A stretch of 64,000 bases of DNA from an uncultured Nitrososphaerota archaeon (GTDB taxonomy: Archaea > Thermoproteota > Nitrososphaeria > Nitrososphaerales > Nitrosopumilaceae). Of the stretch, positions 1,037 to 7,040 are shown in pieces; the first letter of the stretch is position 1, and each line of letters begins with the position of its first letter. Both the position numbers and the translations under genes were made by a program. A model generated the notes under the pieces. The model had not been told where the DNA came from. It ran no database searches and worked only from the letters and a program-made list of their open reading frames with translations. Location: the NCBI GenBank assembly GCA_963824385.1, contig CAWGPD010000001.1:242136-306135 (forward strand). Direction: 5' to 3'.

Positions 1037-2023
1037 CTATCTGAACTTGGGCAGAGATCTTGCAATAACAATTACAGAAACAAATGAAAGTATCACAAGC
1101 AGGAGAGGCATTGGAAACTCTGGTACTGCAGACGTATTTGATATTAATGGAATATTTAATCCAGATATAAAATTAGGATGTATCTGCTCATGCACTATCA
1201 TCATTACATCATCTCCGGATTGTTTTGTGTTGATATCTTGCTGTAATTGGCCAAAAGCAGTTTCAATCTTGACAAGATAAGGAGATGCACTTGGCGGAGC
1301 CATCGATTTTACGTTTTCAAACATGGATTGAGCTGCAATTTCGAGTTGTTGAGAACTTTGATATGCTGGAGCATCAACAATCGTCATCTGAGTTCCTGTC
1401 ATACTACCAGAACTTCCCATGTTCATTCCTGACATACCTTTCATTCCTGACATACCACTCATTCCAGACATGCTACCAGAACTTCCCATACTCATGTTAT
1501 TCATATTCATATTTGCCATATTAGTGAGATCTTCTTTTGAGCCAATTGCATCAGCATAATCTATTAGTACTTGATTTAGGACATCAAGTGTTGCAAGAGA
1601 TTGTATAGTTGCATTATTTTGCACAGAACTTGAAATTTCTGAAGCTTCGACTTGATCCAAAAGTTGATTCAGTACAACTGAATTTTGTGATGCAATAGTG
1701 AGGTCAGGGTTAGCACTGCCAGACATGGAATACAAATTATTAATTGCCGATGAAAGACTATTAGCCAAAGTTGCGTTTTGTTGAGTAAGTGTATTCATTT
1801 CATTTATCCCCCAATATTCTTGACTTTTTGAAATATGCCAGTTGGCAGTTTTACTGTCAGAAATACTATTAGCAATAAGAGTTGATTCTACCTTGAATTC
1901 TTGGATTTTTGCAATAAGATCTGCATCGGAATTTTTTACAAAATTATGAGCAAATACAGGATGAACAAACATCATTCCCACAAGTCCAATTACCATTAAC
2001 GATACAACAATTTTCTTTGCCAA
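1037..2023 (-). CDS. Secreted Met-rich PEF-CTERM surface protein, putative copper-binding
   Basis: Signal peptide ending VFA-HNF, central NMNMNNMSMGSSGSMSGMSGMSGMKGMSGMNMG tract, C-terminal VPEFP + TM + basic tail. Confidence 0.8.
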   Translation of the reverse strand: MAKKIVVSLMVIGLVGMMFVHPVFAHNFVKNSDADLIAKIQEFKVESTLIANSISDSKTANWHISKSQEYWGINEMNTLTQQNATLANSLSSAINNLYSMSGSANPDLTIASQNSVVLNQLLDQVEASEISSSVQNNATIQSLATLDVLNQVLIDYADAIGSKEDLTNMANMNMNNMSMGSSGSMSGMSGMSGMKGMSGMNMGSSGSMTGTQMTIVDAPAYQSSQQLEIAAQSMFENVKSMAPPSASPYLVKIETAFGQLQQDINTKQSGDDVMMIVHEQIHPNFISGLNIPLISNTSAVPEFPMPLLLVILSFVSVIVIARSLPKFR

Positions 2024-2214
2024 ACTATGACAGTATATTCAAAATAATATTAAAATGTAATGGTACAATCTTCGAATATTACAAATTTTAGCCTCAATCT
2101 TGGTACAGCATTTACACCCATATCCACAATCCTTGGATTAATCCCAATCCACTTGTCTTGATTGTGGCATATTTTTTGTACATCATACATAATAATAAGG
2201 AAAAAAATAATGTG

Positions 2215-2358
2215 ATGGTAATGAAAAATCTTGTATGTGGAATGGAAGTAACCGAAAAGAAACACATGACAAAATACAATGGAAAAGACTTTCTCTTTTG
2301 TTGTGCCCATTGCAAAACAACTTTTGAAAAAAATCCAAAGCAATTTGTTAAAGAATAA
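2215..2358 (+). CDS. YHS/TRASH-domain small metal chaperone
   Basis: NLVCGMEV...YNGKDFLFCCAHCKTTFEKNP fits the TRASH/YHS pattern; lies near copA. Start moved to ATG 2215. Confidence 0.85.
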   Translation: MVMKNLVCGMEVTEKKHMTKYNGKDFLFCCAHCKTTFEKNPKQFVKE

Positions 2359-2548
2359 CATTGAGGGTCATCATCCATCACGATGTTGTTTCTTATTTGA
2401 CTAGAGAGAGACATCTCAATCATATGCTGCAATAACATTTGCAATAAATACACATTTGTTGTACAATGAAGATTTACTTCATAGTTCAAATTCAAATACG
2501 ATATCCTCCTATGATATTTTTATACAAGTTATGCGAAGAAGAGGTGAG

Positions 2549-2800
2549 ATGGGTCACCACAGCCTTGCTGATAACATAATGATGCTTGTGATGTCAGTTG
2601 CAATGCTTACAATGGTAATGTCAATGTTAATCATGGGAGTCAATTGGTCCATAGTACTCCTAATTCTATCAGGAGTATTGACAGCTGTAACAACTGTCTT
2701 TTATTCATTCCAGTCTGCCAGATGTATGTGTGGAACCAATCAATACAATAAGCAATCAAACAAAGCGATATCTGACGCTACATGTGATTGTCCTAAGTGA
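2549..2800 (+). CDS. Small Met-rich membrane protein with Cys-x-Cys motifs
   Basis: ATG preceded by GAGGTGA; MGHH N-terminus, Met-rich hydrophobic helix, second TM, C-terminal CMC and CDC. Confidence 0.65.
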   Translation: MGHHSLADNIMMLVMSVAMLTMVMSMLIMGVNWSIVLLILSGVLTAVTTVFYSFQSARCMCGTNQYNKQSNKAISDATCDCPK

Positions 2801-3068
2801 AAAATGATGAATAAATATAGCACATGCGATTCAACGATATAACATTTGTAAGTCAAGAAAAAACTACATGATGTAGATATTCCAGTTTTAAAAAATGGTA
2901 CCATCCCAGGAATTTTACTAAATGAGGAGTAATATCAAACATCAATGTCATTGTACTTTTGTGTCAAAGTTAGTATCTCCAGAATATTTTGCAGAAAGTG
3001 TATGAGTTCCAATCAATAATGACGAGGAGGACATTGTAGTCATATGAGTACTAGTTCGAATCGGAGTG

Positions 3069-3464
3069 TTATTTTCTCCTTTGACTAATTATAACCCATG
3101 CAAATGGAATTCCTACCAGACATGCTGTGAGCATAGTCATCCATTCCAAAAAAATGGGTATTTTTTCATTTGAAGATATTCCCAACCTGTCAGACATTTC
3201 GCGCATACCAGACATGTTGGACATACCAGCCATTCCATGCATACCAGACATGTTGGACATACCAGCCATTCCATGCATACCAGACATGTTGGACATACCA
3301 GCCATTGTCTCACTTGATATCATTTTAATCGAGTATGCAGAATAGTATTGTTCAGCATTTACTGTATGAAGTTGAGAAACTAATACAAATACAATACCTA
3401 CGAAAATGATCGAAAAAAGACCAAACCAAACACAGGCCAAGTTTTTCTTTAACATAGAGGCCAT
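3069..3464 (-). CDS. Membrane protein with tandem Met-rich repeats
   Basis: N- and C-terminal hydrophobic helices flank (MAGMSNMSGMHG) repeats. Start moved to ATG 3464. Confidence 0.7.
   Translation of the reverse strand: MASMLKKNLACVWFGLFSIIFVGIVFVLVSQLHTVNAEQYYSAYSIKMISSETMAGMSNMSGMHGMAGMSNMSGMHGMAGMSNMSGMREMSDRLGISSNEKIPIFLEWMTMLTACLVGIPFAWVIISQRRK
3203..3306. repeat. 36-bp tandem repeat, about 2.9 copies, encoding MAGMSNMSGMHG on the minus strand
   Basis: Unit gcataccagacatgttggacataccagccattccat starts at 3203, 3239 and 3275 (last copy 32 bp). Confidence 0.95.
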
Positions 3465-3579
3465 TCGTAACACTCGTTTATTTCTTTTAGAAATTAAAAT
3501 CAGTGGTACAATCCACGAATGAATTACCAAAATTGAGAATCAAGGACATGCATATCTATGGATTTAAACAATAAACAAT

Positions 3580-3687
3580 ATGACACATTGTAATTGTGGA
3601 GCTAAACATGAAACTACTTGTAGTTGTCAAAAAACTGGCAAATGCGACTGCGGCAGTAGTTGCACCTGCAAAGATTGCAGATGTTAA
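3580..3687 (+). CDS. Metallothionein-like Cys-rich microprotein (35 aa, 10 Cys)
   Basis: Manual translation: MTHCNCGAKHETTCSCQKTGKCDCGSSCTCKDCRC*. Five CxC motifs, no aromatic residues; 71 bp upstream of copA on the same strand. Confidence 0.8.
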   Translation: MTHCNCGAKHETTCSCQKTGKCDCGSSCTCKDCRC

Positions 3688-3758
3688 TCAAGCAACACGT
3701 GTTCACAGCAAGCCAAGTAATGAGGTTAAAATATTCTTCTTTTTTAGAGTGAGCTAGA

Positions 3759-5864
3759 ATGGCGCGAGACCCCATATGTGGAATGTTTGTAGAGGAAAAA
3801 AATGAGTCATTAAATTTTGAAACAGATGGAAGAAGGTATTATTTTTGCTGCAAAAGCTGCCTAGACGAATTCGCCATGCCAGAAAAAGAACTCAAAAAAC
3901 TAAAGAGTCATGTCGTACTGGCTATCATTTTAACAATTCCCACAGTTTTGCTAACATATATCGCAATTATACCTCACCAATTAAACCCCTACGTACTTTT
4001 TGCATTAGCAACACCAGTCCAGTTCTGGCTCGGTTGGAGATTCTATCAGGGTACATATGATGCATTCAAGCACAAGATGACTAACATGGATGTCCTAATC
4101 GCATTAGGAACATCCACCGCGTGGGGATACAGCACTGTCATAACTTTTGTGCACAATGTAGTACCAATGGCAGATGTATACTTTGAAACATCTTCAGTCA
4201 TAATCACGCTTTTGTTAATTGGAAGATTACTTGAGAGTAAGACCAAGACAAGAGCATCAAAGGCTGTAAAAAAACTACTGGATCTTAAACCAAGATTTGC
4301 TCATGCCATAAAAAATAATCAAGAGGTAGAGGTACCAGTTGAGCAAGTACAACCAGACGATATAATCATAGTTCGTCCAGGGGAAAGAATACCTGTAGAT
4401 GGAACAATAATTGAAGGAAGATCGTCAATAGATCAATCTGCGATAACAGGTGAGAGTATCCCAGTAGAAAAAGAAGTTGGAGATGATGTCATTGGAAGCA
4501 CCATCAACAAAGAAGGCGCATTCAAATTCAAAGCAACCAAGGTAGGAGACGAATCTGTCTTATCGCAAATAGTAAAGCTTGTCGAGGATGCAAAATCAAG
4601 CAGGGTTCCGATACAAAAGCTTGCTGATAAAATATCATCATATTTTGTACCACTTATAATTACAATAGCAATAATTTCTGCACTGGGGTGGTTCTTTGTA
4701 GGTGGAATTGGCCTTACTTTCTCAATTCTTGCATTTGTTTCAGTAATAATAATTTCTTGTCCATGTGCGCTTGGAATTGCAACACCTGCAGCTCTAATGG
4801 TAGGAGCAGGCAAGGCTGCAGAAAACGGCATCCTGATAAAGGGTGGTGAAAATCTTGAAAATGCAAGAAAGGTTCAGATTATAATATTCGACAAAACCGG
4901 GACTTTAACCAAGGGAATTCCTTCTGTTACTGATGTTGTGACTATAAACGAGATGAACAGCGATGAGATATTACGCCTTGCCGCAATTTCAGAGAAAAAT
5001 TCAGAGCATCCCCTTGCAAGAGCTATAGTAAGACATGCAAAAAAAACAAATCTCGTAGTTTCAGATCCAGATTCGTTTAAATCCATCACAGGTAGTGGAG
5101 TTGAAGCCCAGTACGGAGATCATCAGATATTGATAGGAAATAGAAAATTCATAACAAATAACGGCATTACAATTGATGAAAAAATGGAGAAGAAGATTCA
5201 GGAATTTGAAGAAGGCGGAAAGACTACAATCATCATATGTATTGACAAAAAATTATCAGGAATAATTGCAATGATGGATACGATCAGTGACAACGCACTA
5301 GAAGCCATACAGAGGCTCAAAAAGAATGGAATTCAAGTAGCAATGCTTACAGGAGACAACACAAAGATTGCCAATGCAATAGCAAGTAAACTTGGAATAG
5401 ACCGAGTTTTCGCAGAAGTATCACCTCAAGAAAAAGAGAACGTCATAGCAAAAATAAAGCAAGAAGGAAAGACTGTAGCAATGGTGGGAGATGGAATCAA
5501 TGACGCCCCCGCACTTGCAGCAGCTGATTTAGGAATAGCATTTGGAAGTGGAACAGATATTGCAAAGGAGACTGGAGGGATTATACTTGTCAAAGATGAT
5601 TTAAGAGATGTTGTAACAGCAATAGAGCTAAGCAAGAAAACTGTTGCCAAGATTAAACAAAATCTTGTACTGTCATTTGTTTACAACTCGGCATTAATTC
5701 CAGTTGCAGCTGGCGCACTTGTTCCAATATTTGGCCCTCATGTGTACATGATCTTGCCGTTTCTTGCAGCTGGCGCAATGGCAACAAGCTCCATAACGGT
5801 AATTAGTAATTCCCTATTATTGAACAGGTACAAACCAATGAGACAGAGGTTAGAAATAAAATGA
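3759..5864 (+). CDS. copA: Copper-translocating P1B-type ATPase with N-terminal YHS/TRASH domain
   Basis: DPICGM...YFCCKSC N-domain; TGES, CPC, DKTGT, SEHP, GDGIND, YN and MATSS motifs of Cu(I) P1B-1 ATPases. Confidence 0.95.
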
Positions 5865-6148
5865 TCCCAAAATCCATTTTATTGATACGTGAAACTTCAT
5901 ATCATAATTTTAGGAGAAATATGTCAACTCAGATCTTTACTGCATGGGCGCACTCTCCATACAGCAAAGAGCAGAGCAGAATGAAGTCAAATCATTATGC
6001 AGTATCAATACCACGTCATTTTACAAGATAAAGAAATTGGTACATTAGTCGAATATACCATGTATGAAGATACTTTGCTTCATACCATGAATGAGCCATT
6101 CTATAGTTGTACCAGTTCGTTTAAATTTCTAAAAAGCGTAAATTTACT

Positions 6149-6541
6149 ATGCAGAAAGAAAGCCATCTATTGGAAAATAGGCCAAAGCTTTTTACCATAA
6201 TCATTTTTTCTGTAATCGCAATTTTTGCAGTACCAGTAATACTTCCTCATGTATTTCACGAATTTCAAGTCTTCCACATACTACTCCACTTAAGCGGAGT
6301 TGCAATAGCCAGTTTTCTTACCATAGTTTCTTCAGTAGCATATGCAAGAATTAAAACAAAAAGGCTAATGTTTACAATGATAGCATTTGGCTTATTTGCA
6401 GTTGCAGAGGTATTCTCAGTCATCGATGCAGCATGGCAGTATACTTATTATTTCGGGTCCGTCTCAGCAGATGAGGTAGGACATATTCTTGAATTATGCA
6501 CATTGGGGATGTTTGCATTGAGTGTGTTTAGGAGAGATTAG
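6149..6541 (+). CDS. Four-TM membrane protein with His residues, coupled to downstream regulator
   Basis: Four hydrophobic helices; stop lies 1 bp before the wHTH start codon. Confidence 0.7.
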   Translation: MQKESHLLENRPKLFTIIIFSVIAIFAVPVILPHVFHEFQVFHILLHLSGVAIASFLTIVSSVAYARIKTKRLMFTMIAFGLFAVAEVFSVIDAAWQYTYYFGSVSADEVGHILELCTLGMFALSVFRRD

Positions 6542-6542
6542 A

Positions 6543-7040
6543 ATGGATAGAAGTATAGAGATCATAAACATTGTAGAGAAAAATCCAGGGATAAAGTTTC
6601 GAGAGATTATGAGAGAGTCCGGACTGAAAAATGGAGTTCTAAGTTATCACGTAAGAAAATTAGAAGAGAGTGGTAGTGTAAAGATAGATAGAAAGTCAGG
6701 AGAGACCCGATTTTATCCCCTTTGCGTTACAGATGAAGAATCAAATCTTATAACAAGTCTTAGGCGAGACACTCAAAGATATATTTTATTATCTTTGCTT
6801 GATGGTAAATCACTTGCATTTAATGAGATAGTTTCGAAAGTCAGAAAATCACCTTCGACTGTTTCTACATTCCTTGGAAGACTTGTTGATGATAACATAG
6901 TGGAAATTAAGATCGTGGGATTAAAGAAAGTCTACTTTTTAAAAAATACAGACATGGTTCGTGAGATAATTGAAAAATACAATCCAATTCTTCTTGAAAG
7001 AACTGCATACAACTTTGCAGACACGTTTGCAAACCTTTAG
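6543..7040 (+). CDS. Double winged-helix transcriptional regulator
   Basis: NPGIKFREIMRESGLKNGVLSYHVRKLE and a second HTH, AFNEIVSKVRKSPSTVSTFLGRL. Confidence 0.85.
   Translation: MDRSIEIINIVEKNPGIKFREIMRESGLKNGVLSYHVRKLEESGSVKIDRKSGETRFYPLCVTDEESNLITSLRRDTQRYILLSLLDGKSLAFNEIVSKVRKSPSTVSTFLGRLVDDNIVEIKIVGLKKVYFLKNTDMVREIIEKYNPILLERTAYNFADTFANL

Follow-up and report, generated by a model that had tools for sequence, protein, structure and literature searches.

A metallothionein-like CxC micro-gene ahead of copA in a Nitrosopumilaceae archaeon and the wider family to which it belongs

Does a reading frame of only 35 codons, lying just upstream of a copper ATPase gene, encode a functional peptide, and can that peptide be regarded as an archaeal metallothionein? 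Ammonia-oxidising archaea (AOA), which are dependent on copper enzymes, account for much of the nitrification in the sea and in soil. A family-wide CxC peptide with a copA-linked branch could fill a gap in the intracellular copper storage or buffering of the Nitrosopumilaceae, could account for the unequal copper tolerance of AOA lineages, and could extend the metallothioneins (MTs) to the third domain of life. “MTs are absent in archaea” is the wording in the accessible text of a 2013 review (PMC3600143), which accords with the remark in a preliminary description of this locus that no well-characterised archaeal metallothionein is known, and the accessible text of a second paper reports that one archaeon encodes no MT orthologs (PMC3407056). 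Likewise, in the literature on metallothioneins, archaea, and AOA and copper, subscription reviews aside, we found no paper on an archaeal metallothionein. For the purposes of discussion here, “the window” is the whole 64-kb stretch of DNA that was analysed, G000 is the genome from which it comes, other G numbers denote other genomes, and L numbers denote the loci or contigs examined. The coordinates of all features are collected in Table 1.

The frame translates into MTHCNCGAKHETTCSCQKTGKCDCGSSCTCKDCRC, a peptide of 35 aa. Its ten Cys (28.6% of the residues) all fall within five CxC pairs, it carries His3 and His10, and it is devoid of Phe, Trp, Tyr, Leu, Ile and Val; both the coordinates and the translation agree with the preliminary description, which had claimed precisely this make-up (ten Cys as five CxC pairs, two His, no aromatic or large aliphatic residues). 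The gene had also been called unannotated, and this is consistent with the exact 35-aa peptide having no match among ~15 billion predicted proteins. Within the 64-kb window it is the sole open frame with at least four CxC per 35-aa stretch, and in first-order Markov simulations of the window none of 100 reached four CxC (the maximum was three, in 2 of the 100).

Table 1. Positions of the peptide gene, its neighbours, the associated sequence motifs and the related genes at other loci. Positions without a prefix are those of the window.
Feature	Position	Strand	Basis or remark
CxC peptide gene (metallothionein-like, “family A”); ATG at 3580, TAA ending 3687	3580..3687	+	sequence, purifying selection, copA synteny, Cys spacing
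Peptide-copA spacer	3688..3758	+	T6 run (3740-3745), SD-like GAGTGAG (3747-3753)
copA, P1B-1 type copper ATPase with N-terminal YHS/TRASH domain	3759..5864	+	Pfam domains, TIGR01511
Operator-like motif TGGTACAATCCACGAAT in the 115-bp divergent intergenic region	3504..3520	+	motif scan
Operator-like motif copies in the island	2061-2077, 3504-3520, 6038-6054, 6098-6114	+, +, +, -	
Operator-like copy before membrane protein gene 6149-6541	6098..6114	-	further copy 6038-6054 (+)
TATA-like box ~21-28 nt ahead of the ATG	3552..3559	+	aligns with conserved TAATTAA box in other loci
Divergent Met-rich membrane protein, three MAGMSNMSGMHG repeats; likely start ATG 3464	3069..3464	-	homologs align from residue 24-28
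Stand-alone YHS/TRASH mini-protein, 47 aa	2215..2358	+	68% identical to YHS domain of L031 DsbD_TM-YHS protein
Secreted or anchored Met-rich protein (MSGMSGMSGMKGMSGM)	1037..2023	-	operator-like copy 2061-2077 upstream
Double winged-helix ArsR/MarR-like regulator	6522..7040	+	Pfam HTH_24, HTH_5
Tandem peptide-gene duplication with intervening copA 5′ remnant	L055:1747-2215; L056 and L057:4001-4469		
Family-B copy of the window’s own genome, on another contig	G000:C4:502963-503100 = L037:1501-1638	-	
Family C, ~455-aa protein with the CxC module as C-terminal tail	L049:1492-2859	-	
Family-D genes	L070:2473-2580, L071:2384-2500, L073:2444-2557, L074:2494-2607, L054:1539-1652	+, +, +, -, -	

Homologs were sought by a six-frame search of 201 same-family genomes, by a scan of species-representative genomes and by a metagenome scan. 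Those that we refer to as family A come from the same-genus genomes G121 (twice), G188 and G697, from the metagenome-assembled genome (MAG) L051 and from nine metagenome contigs (L054-L062), some of which are near-duplicates of one another; they are 60-69% identical to the window peptide and 35-46 aa long. Across 14 family-A genes, the variable columns at codon positions 1, 2 and 3 are 14, 10 and 33 of 34, respectively, and each of the nine invariant Cys columns uses both TGT and TGC. Furthermore, a Nei-Gojobori comparison of the two G121 copies gives 14 synonymous versus 2 non-synonymous differences, and the six pairs formed by four family-A genes have pS values of 0.60-1.05 and pN values of 0.02-0.22. 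Judged by these comparisons, the frame is a real gene under strong purifying selection, and we regard it as a clear case of a functional micro-gene overlooked by gene callers. The invariant or near-invariant residues are nine Cys, Gly7, His10, Gly20-Lys21 and Gly25-Ser26. The retention of these nine Cys across the family-A homologs bears out the conserved Cys spacing that the preliminary description had named as a check. A tenth, terminal Cys (in CRC or CKCK) is present in G000, L054 and the second L051 copy; the remaining copies end in a His-rich tail (PxHGKH, for example PRHGKH).

Two other accounts of the frame were considered. A chance ORF is ruled out by the Markov simulations together with the pattern of codon-position variation, and the overlapping and antisense frames at 3596-3757 (+) and 3614-3775 (-) are ruled out as well, the codon-position variation fitting the CxC frame.

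The product of the gene that follows contains YHS, E1-E2_ATPase and Hydrolase domains (Pfam). It scores 608.6 bits against the NCBIfam model for copper-translocating ATPases (TIGR01511, cut-off 397) and 427.7 bits against the Cd/Zn subfamily model TIGR01512, which is above that model’s cut-off of 313.5 and below the product’s own copper-model score. The motifs CPC, N-x6-YN-x4-P and M-x2-SS-x5-N are readable in the sequence, and we take these to be Cu(I) signatures. With a 71-bp spacer and an ATPase that passes TIGR01511, the earlier claim of a co-oriented Cu(I) ATPase gene 71 bp downstream is confirmed.

The pairing of the two genes extends to other loci. Specifically, at 12 of 15 family-A loci the peptide gene is followed directly, and in the same orientation, by copA sequence. 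Long copA matches occur at ten of the loci (L001, L050, L052, L053, L051 and L055-L059), with a small ABM-domain gene between the peptide gene and copA in L053; L061 and L062 have only an 81-aa N-terminal copA remnant, and these loci look decayed. The contigs of L054 and L060 end 410 and 200 nt past the peptide gene, with no copA within those stretches, and the family-A copy at L072 (G697) lies 23 kb away from copA on its contig. At L055-L057 there are two peptide genes in tandem ahead of copA, with a copA 5′ remnant between them, an arrangement which suggests that the whole peptide-copA unit was duplicated and then decayed. The conserved homologs near copA that had been proposed as a check, and whose absence the preliminary description would have taken to refute its claim, are thus found: homologs 65-69% identical to the window peptide precede copA in sister genomes and metagenome contigs.

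Not every related copA gene has such a partner. Four other YHS-type copA orthologs of the same genus (in G690, G694, G077 and G697) have no CxC ORF within ~1 kb upstream; these orthologs, together with the L072 copy 23 kb from copA, indicate that the peptide is not an obligatory partner of CopA. When these four loci are viewed by eye, two of them have an HTH protein with a Cys-rich C-terminus in the place of the peptide. The distribution bears on the idea that the peptide serves CopA as a dedicated Cu(I) chaperone, not as a Cu(I) store, taking the place of a missing CopZ/HMA protein and delivering one or two Cu(I) either to the YHS domain or to the entry site in the membrane. Such a role would suit a copA whose product has YHS rather than HMA domains and a peptide gene that is, in most loci, the cistron just before copA with a spacer of ~28-36 nt. 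We nonetheless consider it distinctly unlikely: nine to ten Cys in CxC pairs far exceed what a chaperone site needs, there is no MxCxxC motif, paralogs lie away from copA, and the YHS-type copA genes just described do without the peptide gene.

The DNA around the peptide gene offers hints as to how it might be expressed. Between its stop codon and the ATG of copA, most homologous loci have ~28-36 nt that include a conserved CTTTTTTAGTTGAT, and G000 has 71 nt. As the short spacer leaves no room for a separate copA promoter in most loci, we infer an operon, and the peptide gene and copA are likely co-transcribed. The GTTGAT of the spacer may be a Shine-Dalgarno-like site, and the T-run could be an archaeal terminator of partial effect. 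On the upstream side, the TATA-like box points to a leaderless or short-leader transcript. A scan with bacterial promoter and terminator models, which are not applicable to archaea, gave no matches. The operator-like TGGTACAA is kept in 9 of 11 family-A upstream regions. Within the window, TGGTACAWTNNNMGAAT matches five times versus 0.18 expected, and four of these matches fall in 2061-6114, where the copies precede the Met-rich genes and the membrane protein gene at a distance of ~35-56 nt from the gene starts. To judge from this clustering, the motifs look like a small copper regulon.

A very short frame that immediately precedes copA and is separated from it by a spacer with a T-run could also be read as a cis-acting leader peptide that controls copA, or as encoding a precursor from which a copper-binding peptide is modified and secreted (a RiPP or chalkophore). 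We judge either version extremely improbable, given that nearly all residues, beyond the Cys, are under selection at the amino-acid level, that paralogs stand alone at unrelated loci or form the tail of a 455-aa protein (discussed below), and that no genes for a modifying enzyme, protease or exporter are adjacent in the loci scanned.

It is informative to examine the neighbouring genes as well. The divergent Met-rich membrane protein is related to the Met-rich/TM segment of DsbD_TM-YHS proteins that hold the same position elsewhere; in most loci the divergent neighbour is such a DsbD_TM-YHS fusion, and in G000 and L054 it is the Met-rich membrane protein. Neither this protein nor the Met-rich protein at 1037-2023 belongs to a Pfam family, and both probably bind Cu(I) through their Met motifs. 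The stand-alone YHS/TRASH mini-protein is possibly a small copper chaperone, and its gene is probably uncalled as well. Downstream of copA, the winged-helix protein scores 40.6 bits against HTH_metalloreg, below the cut-off of 55, and is a candidate regulator of the island. The copper reading of the locus is favoured because the copper-type P1B ATPase shares one island with Met-rich and YHS proteins and with an operator-like motif in several copies.

The DsbD-like neighbour invites a different reading, in which the peptide has a thiol/disulfide redox or Fe-S function and partners this neighbour, for instance by donating electrons or by absorbing oxidative damage due to copper. In line with that proposal, the divergent protein has a DsbD_TM domain in most loci, there is a weak DsbD model match, and the universal copies of the wider family introduced below (family B) are not beside metal genes. 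Thiol-disulfide exchange proteins, however, typically use CxxC in a folded domain. The peptide instead has a CxC array within 35 aa, for which AF2 predicts no fold, and G000 and L054 keep the peptide without a DsbD_TM part; the redox or Fe-S role is therefore very improbable in our view. The AF2 model itself (alignment A5) has a pLDDT of 51.2 and a pTM of 0.20, with no confident fold and with metal absent from the model. This is the result expected of a metal-dependent folder, and it does not discriminate between the readings.

The reach of these peptides turns out to be much wider than the copA-linked loci. The preliminary description had presented a single copA-linked gene; the gene stands, and its scope has to be widened to a family present in all sampled Nitrosopumilaceae. 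We define this CxC family by the profile A3, CxC-x7-9-CxC-x5-CxC-x3-CxC-x2-4-C, with nine conserved Cys; the window ORF, itself a row of A3, scores 35.3 bits against it (E 2.7e-8). In the phylum sample, all 56 Nitrosopumilaceae genomes match A3 and none of the 344 others do; in the order sample the counts are 23 of 23 and 0 of 127, the latter from 19 families. Taken together, the profile comparisons and gene neighbourhoods indicate that family A is a rare, copA-linked, diverged branch of a Nitrosopumilaceae CxC micro-protein family.

Family B comprises acidic peptides of 44-48 aa, for example MTDAACGCESSAENKVECDCQLQGECYCDANCTCKQSTCKTQVATFR, which have nine invariant Cys and which were first met as weak six-frame matches. 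They include Tyr and Phe, departing from the aromatic-free make-up of metallothioneins. When families A and B are aligned profile to profile with hhalign, the match has a probability of 92% and an E-value of 6.6e-7, and the core common to both is CxC-x5-CxC-x3-CxC. The family-B copy of G000 is flanked by genes without a known family, and its public protein cluster has 10 members and no name. More generally, family-B copies lie between genes annotated without a function, not metal genes, and neither Pfam nor NCBIfam has a family for the neighbouring 293-aa and 416-493-aa proteins; with family B placed away from metal genes, the ancestral role of the module could be different.

Two further forms carry the same kind of array. 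In family C, the module is the tail of a protein whose other parts are a signal peptide, one TM helix and an ectodomain that matches no Pfam family; the nine-Cys CxC tail is predicted to be cytoplasmic because basic residues follow the helix. Family C is present in many Nitrosopumilaceae genomes, and no such fusion was found in the four genomes of the window’s genus in the phylum sample. Family D, with peptides of 35-38 aa and the spacing CxC-x4-C-x4-CxC-x5-CxC-x3-CxC, occurs in 11 further genomes of a 41-genome genus sample and as a second match in G188. Its gene in L070 is divergent from an ortholog of the window’s Met-rich protein and shares the same operator-like motif, that in L071 lies directly 3′ of a gene for a 750-aa protein with CopD and beta-propeller parts, and one family-D gene adjoins an HxlR-type regulator. 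Also adjoining a family-D peptide and the HxlR regulator, at L073:3079-3417 (+), is a gene for a 112-aa protein with seven Cys in its first 30 residues and no Pfam family. The core C-x-C-x5-C-x-C-x3-C-x-C-x2-C is invariant across families A, B and D. When 1.84 billion representative proteins were searched exhaustively with HMMER, only 26 matched at E ≤1e-3; the 23 that were examined are all B- or C-like, with no known metallothionein among them. A word-index protein search, weak for such peptides, found one protein with a natural 42-aa homolog as the query and two with the G000 family-B copy.

Should such a peptide be called a metallothionein? Under the operational definition of the Kagi nomenclature, MTs combine low mass with high Cys content in CxC, CxxC or CC and form metal-thiolate clusters. 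At 35 aa the window peptide is well within the size limit of <10 kDa, and it is rich in Cys and free of aromatic residues, as that definition would have it. It has no Pfam family at E up to 10, including the MT families PF00131, PF12749, PF02067, PF02068 and PF02069, and no NCBIfam family; for PF12749 (Metallothio_Euk), 12 of the 15 family-A members match below threshold (best E 0.063, cut-off 22 bits). A search of 177,635 PDB sequences (E up to 10) gave five matches, of which three, 1dft, 2mrt and 1m0j, are vertebrate MT beta-domains, matched without gaps over residues 12-35 with non-significant E-values of 0.08-0.15. The others are the Neurospora Cu-MT 1t2y (residues 13-33, E 8.6) and an unrelated archaeal zinc protein. 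The beta-domain match has a score of 16.4 against a compositional bias of 16.9, so that the similarity is driven by composition. The family-A profile first retrieves short CCCH zinc-finger stretches from the PDB (E 0.07), ahead of MTs (E 1.2-7.9), and the family-B profile has no PDB match. In the ESM Atlas the nearest neighbours, which are leads only, are unnamed clusters of 33-47 aa and three MT clusters, at 0.77-0.85. The claim that the peptide is metallothionein-like nevertheless holds up, its composition and Cys spacing matching those of MT beta-domains and of the Neurospora Cu-MT. Hence the window peptide is metallothionein-like by composition, spacing and context, while its membership of a curated MT family cannot be demonstrated.

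It is also worth considering which metal such a peptide would hold. His ligands are typical of Zn-binding bacterial MTs, and the near-invariant His10 and the His-rich PxHGKH tails of most homologs suit Zn(II) as well as Cu(I). The nine-Cys beta-domain pattern also binds three Zn or Cd, and according to the accessible text of the 2013 review an MT beta-domain usually binds three metal ions (PMC3600143). Furthermore, the ATPase exceeds the Cd/Zn cut-off of TIGR01512, and the top PDB matches of the family-A profile are CCCH zinc fingers. These points would fit a Zn(II)/Cd(II)-type or unspecific MT, or a small structural zinc-cluster protein, in which case the peptide would act as a buffer for zinc or some other thiophilic metal and its adjacency to copA would reflect a general heavy-metal island. 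We think this unlikely, as the ATPase scores higher on the copper model and has the CPC, YN and MxxSS motifs, the Met-rich and YHS neighbours point to Cu(I), and family D adjoins a CopD-domain protein.

The reading that we favour, with reasonable though far from complete confidence, is that the gene is real and translated, that the peptide would fold around several Cu(I) as an MT-type thiolate cluster, and that its gene is likely co-transcribed with copA. The peptide would then be the first cistron of a copper-induced peptide-copA operon, with the TGGTACAWT-N3-MGAAT site of the 115-bp divergent promoter region as the target of a copper-responsive regulator. Transcription would begin ~25 nt past the TATA-like box and give a leaderless or short-leader mRNA, and the T6 run past the stop codon may end part of the transcripts, yielding more peptide message than pump message. 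The apo-peptide would be unstructured, and by analogy with the nine-Cys beta-domain, the seven-Cys Neurospora Cu-MT and MymT, its nine or ten thiolates, perhaps together with His10, might bind roughly 4-7 Cu(I). Once loaded, it would buffer cytosolic Cu(I) while CopA exports Cu(I), and it may hand Cu(I) to the YHS domain or entry site of CopA. A broader proposal, which we offer tentatively and with the balance of probability slightly against it, is that the Nitrosopumilaceae possess the first archaeal metallothionein system, with a lineage-specific CxC module in four forms. The universal acidic peptides of 44-48 aa would be a housekeeping Cu(I) store for copper-heavy ammonia oxidation, replacing Csp; the tail of the 455-aa surface protein would be a membrane-tethered form; and families A and D would be inducible stress forms in copper islands, family A opening the copA operon at the present locus. 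A peptide of 35 residues is a concrete, cheap and synthesisable object with which to test these ideas.

Comparison with known systems places the peptide in context. One close likeness is to the vertebrate MT beta-domain, whose Cys spacing equals that of residues 14-35: both have C-x-C-x5-C-x-C-x3-C-x-C-x2-C-x-C, ~30% Cys, spacers of Lys, Ser, Thr and Gly, and no aromatic residues, and the nine conserved Cys of the archaeal family are matched by the nine-Cys beta cluster. In contrast to the beta-domain, the archaeal peptide adds an N-terminal CxC and the conserved His10, lacks an alpha-domain and stands alone at 35-46 aa. On sequence evidence, homology and convergence cannot be told apart as the source of this MT likeness. 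The copper metallothionein of Neurospora crassa (1t2y), a Cu(I)-thionein, is likewise a single domain with the same C-x-C-x5-C-x-C-x3-C-x-C-x2-C core, although with 7 Cys in 25 residues, and we know of no genomic link between it and a P1B ATPase. Chaperones of the CopZ/HMA type have a ferredoxin-like HMA fold of ~70 aa with MxCxxC, unlike the window peptide, which has no HMA match and no CxxC.

Among prokaryotic proteins, SmtA/BmtA (PF02069, the bacterial family to which the window peptide has no Pfam match) resembles the present case as an MT paired with a P1B ATPase; Liu et al. are said to have described, in 2004, a cyanobacterial MT and a CPx-ATPase under one repressor. SmtA has a zinc-finger-like fold and binds Zn and Cd in vivo, according to the accessible text of one review (PMC7558416), section 4.3 of which gives SmtA-type proteins and MymT as the only bacterial MTs. 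The Csp proteins (PF03860) are similar in being a cytosolic Cys-thiolate store for Cu(I) and different in being Cys-lined, ~120-aa four-helix bundles with DUF326 repeats that fold before Cu binding, for which the window peptide is too short and to which it has no Pfam match. A Csp has been reported, in the accessible text of one paper, from the soil AOA Nitrososphaera viennensis (PMC7785015). In our sample, PF03860 is found in 9 of 23 genomes of the sister family f3 and neither in any of the 23 sampled Nitrosopumilaceae nor in G000. The CxC family has the reverse distribution in the order sample, being present in 23 of 23 Nitrosopumilaceae and 0 of 23 f3 genomes, and this complementary pattern of Csp and CxC is suggestive only.

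By its description, MymT provides a further precedent, as it too is a prokaryotic, copper-linked micro-protein that was overlooked by gene callers; unlike the peptide described here it is bacterial, and to our knowledge it is not known as a cistron of a copA operon. In the accessible text of the review cited above, MymT is a 4.9-kDa Cys-rich protein that is encoded by a small, originally non-annotated ORF, is needed for copper resistance, and has a predicted capacity of up to six Cu(I) (PMC7558416).
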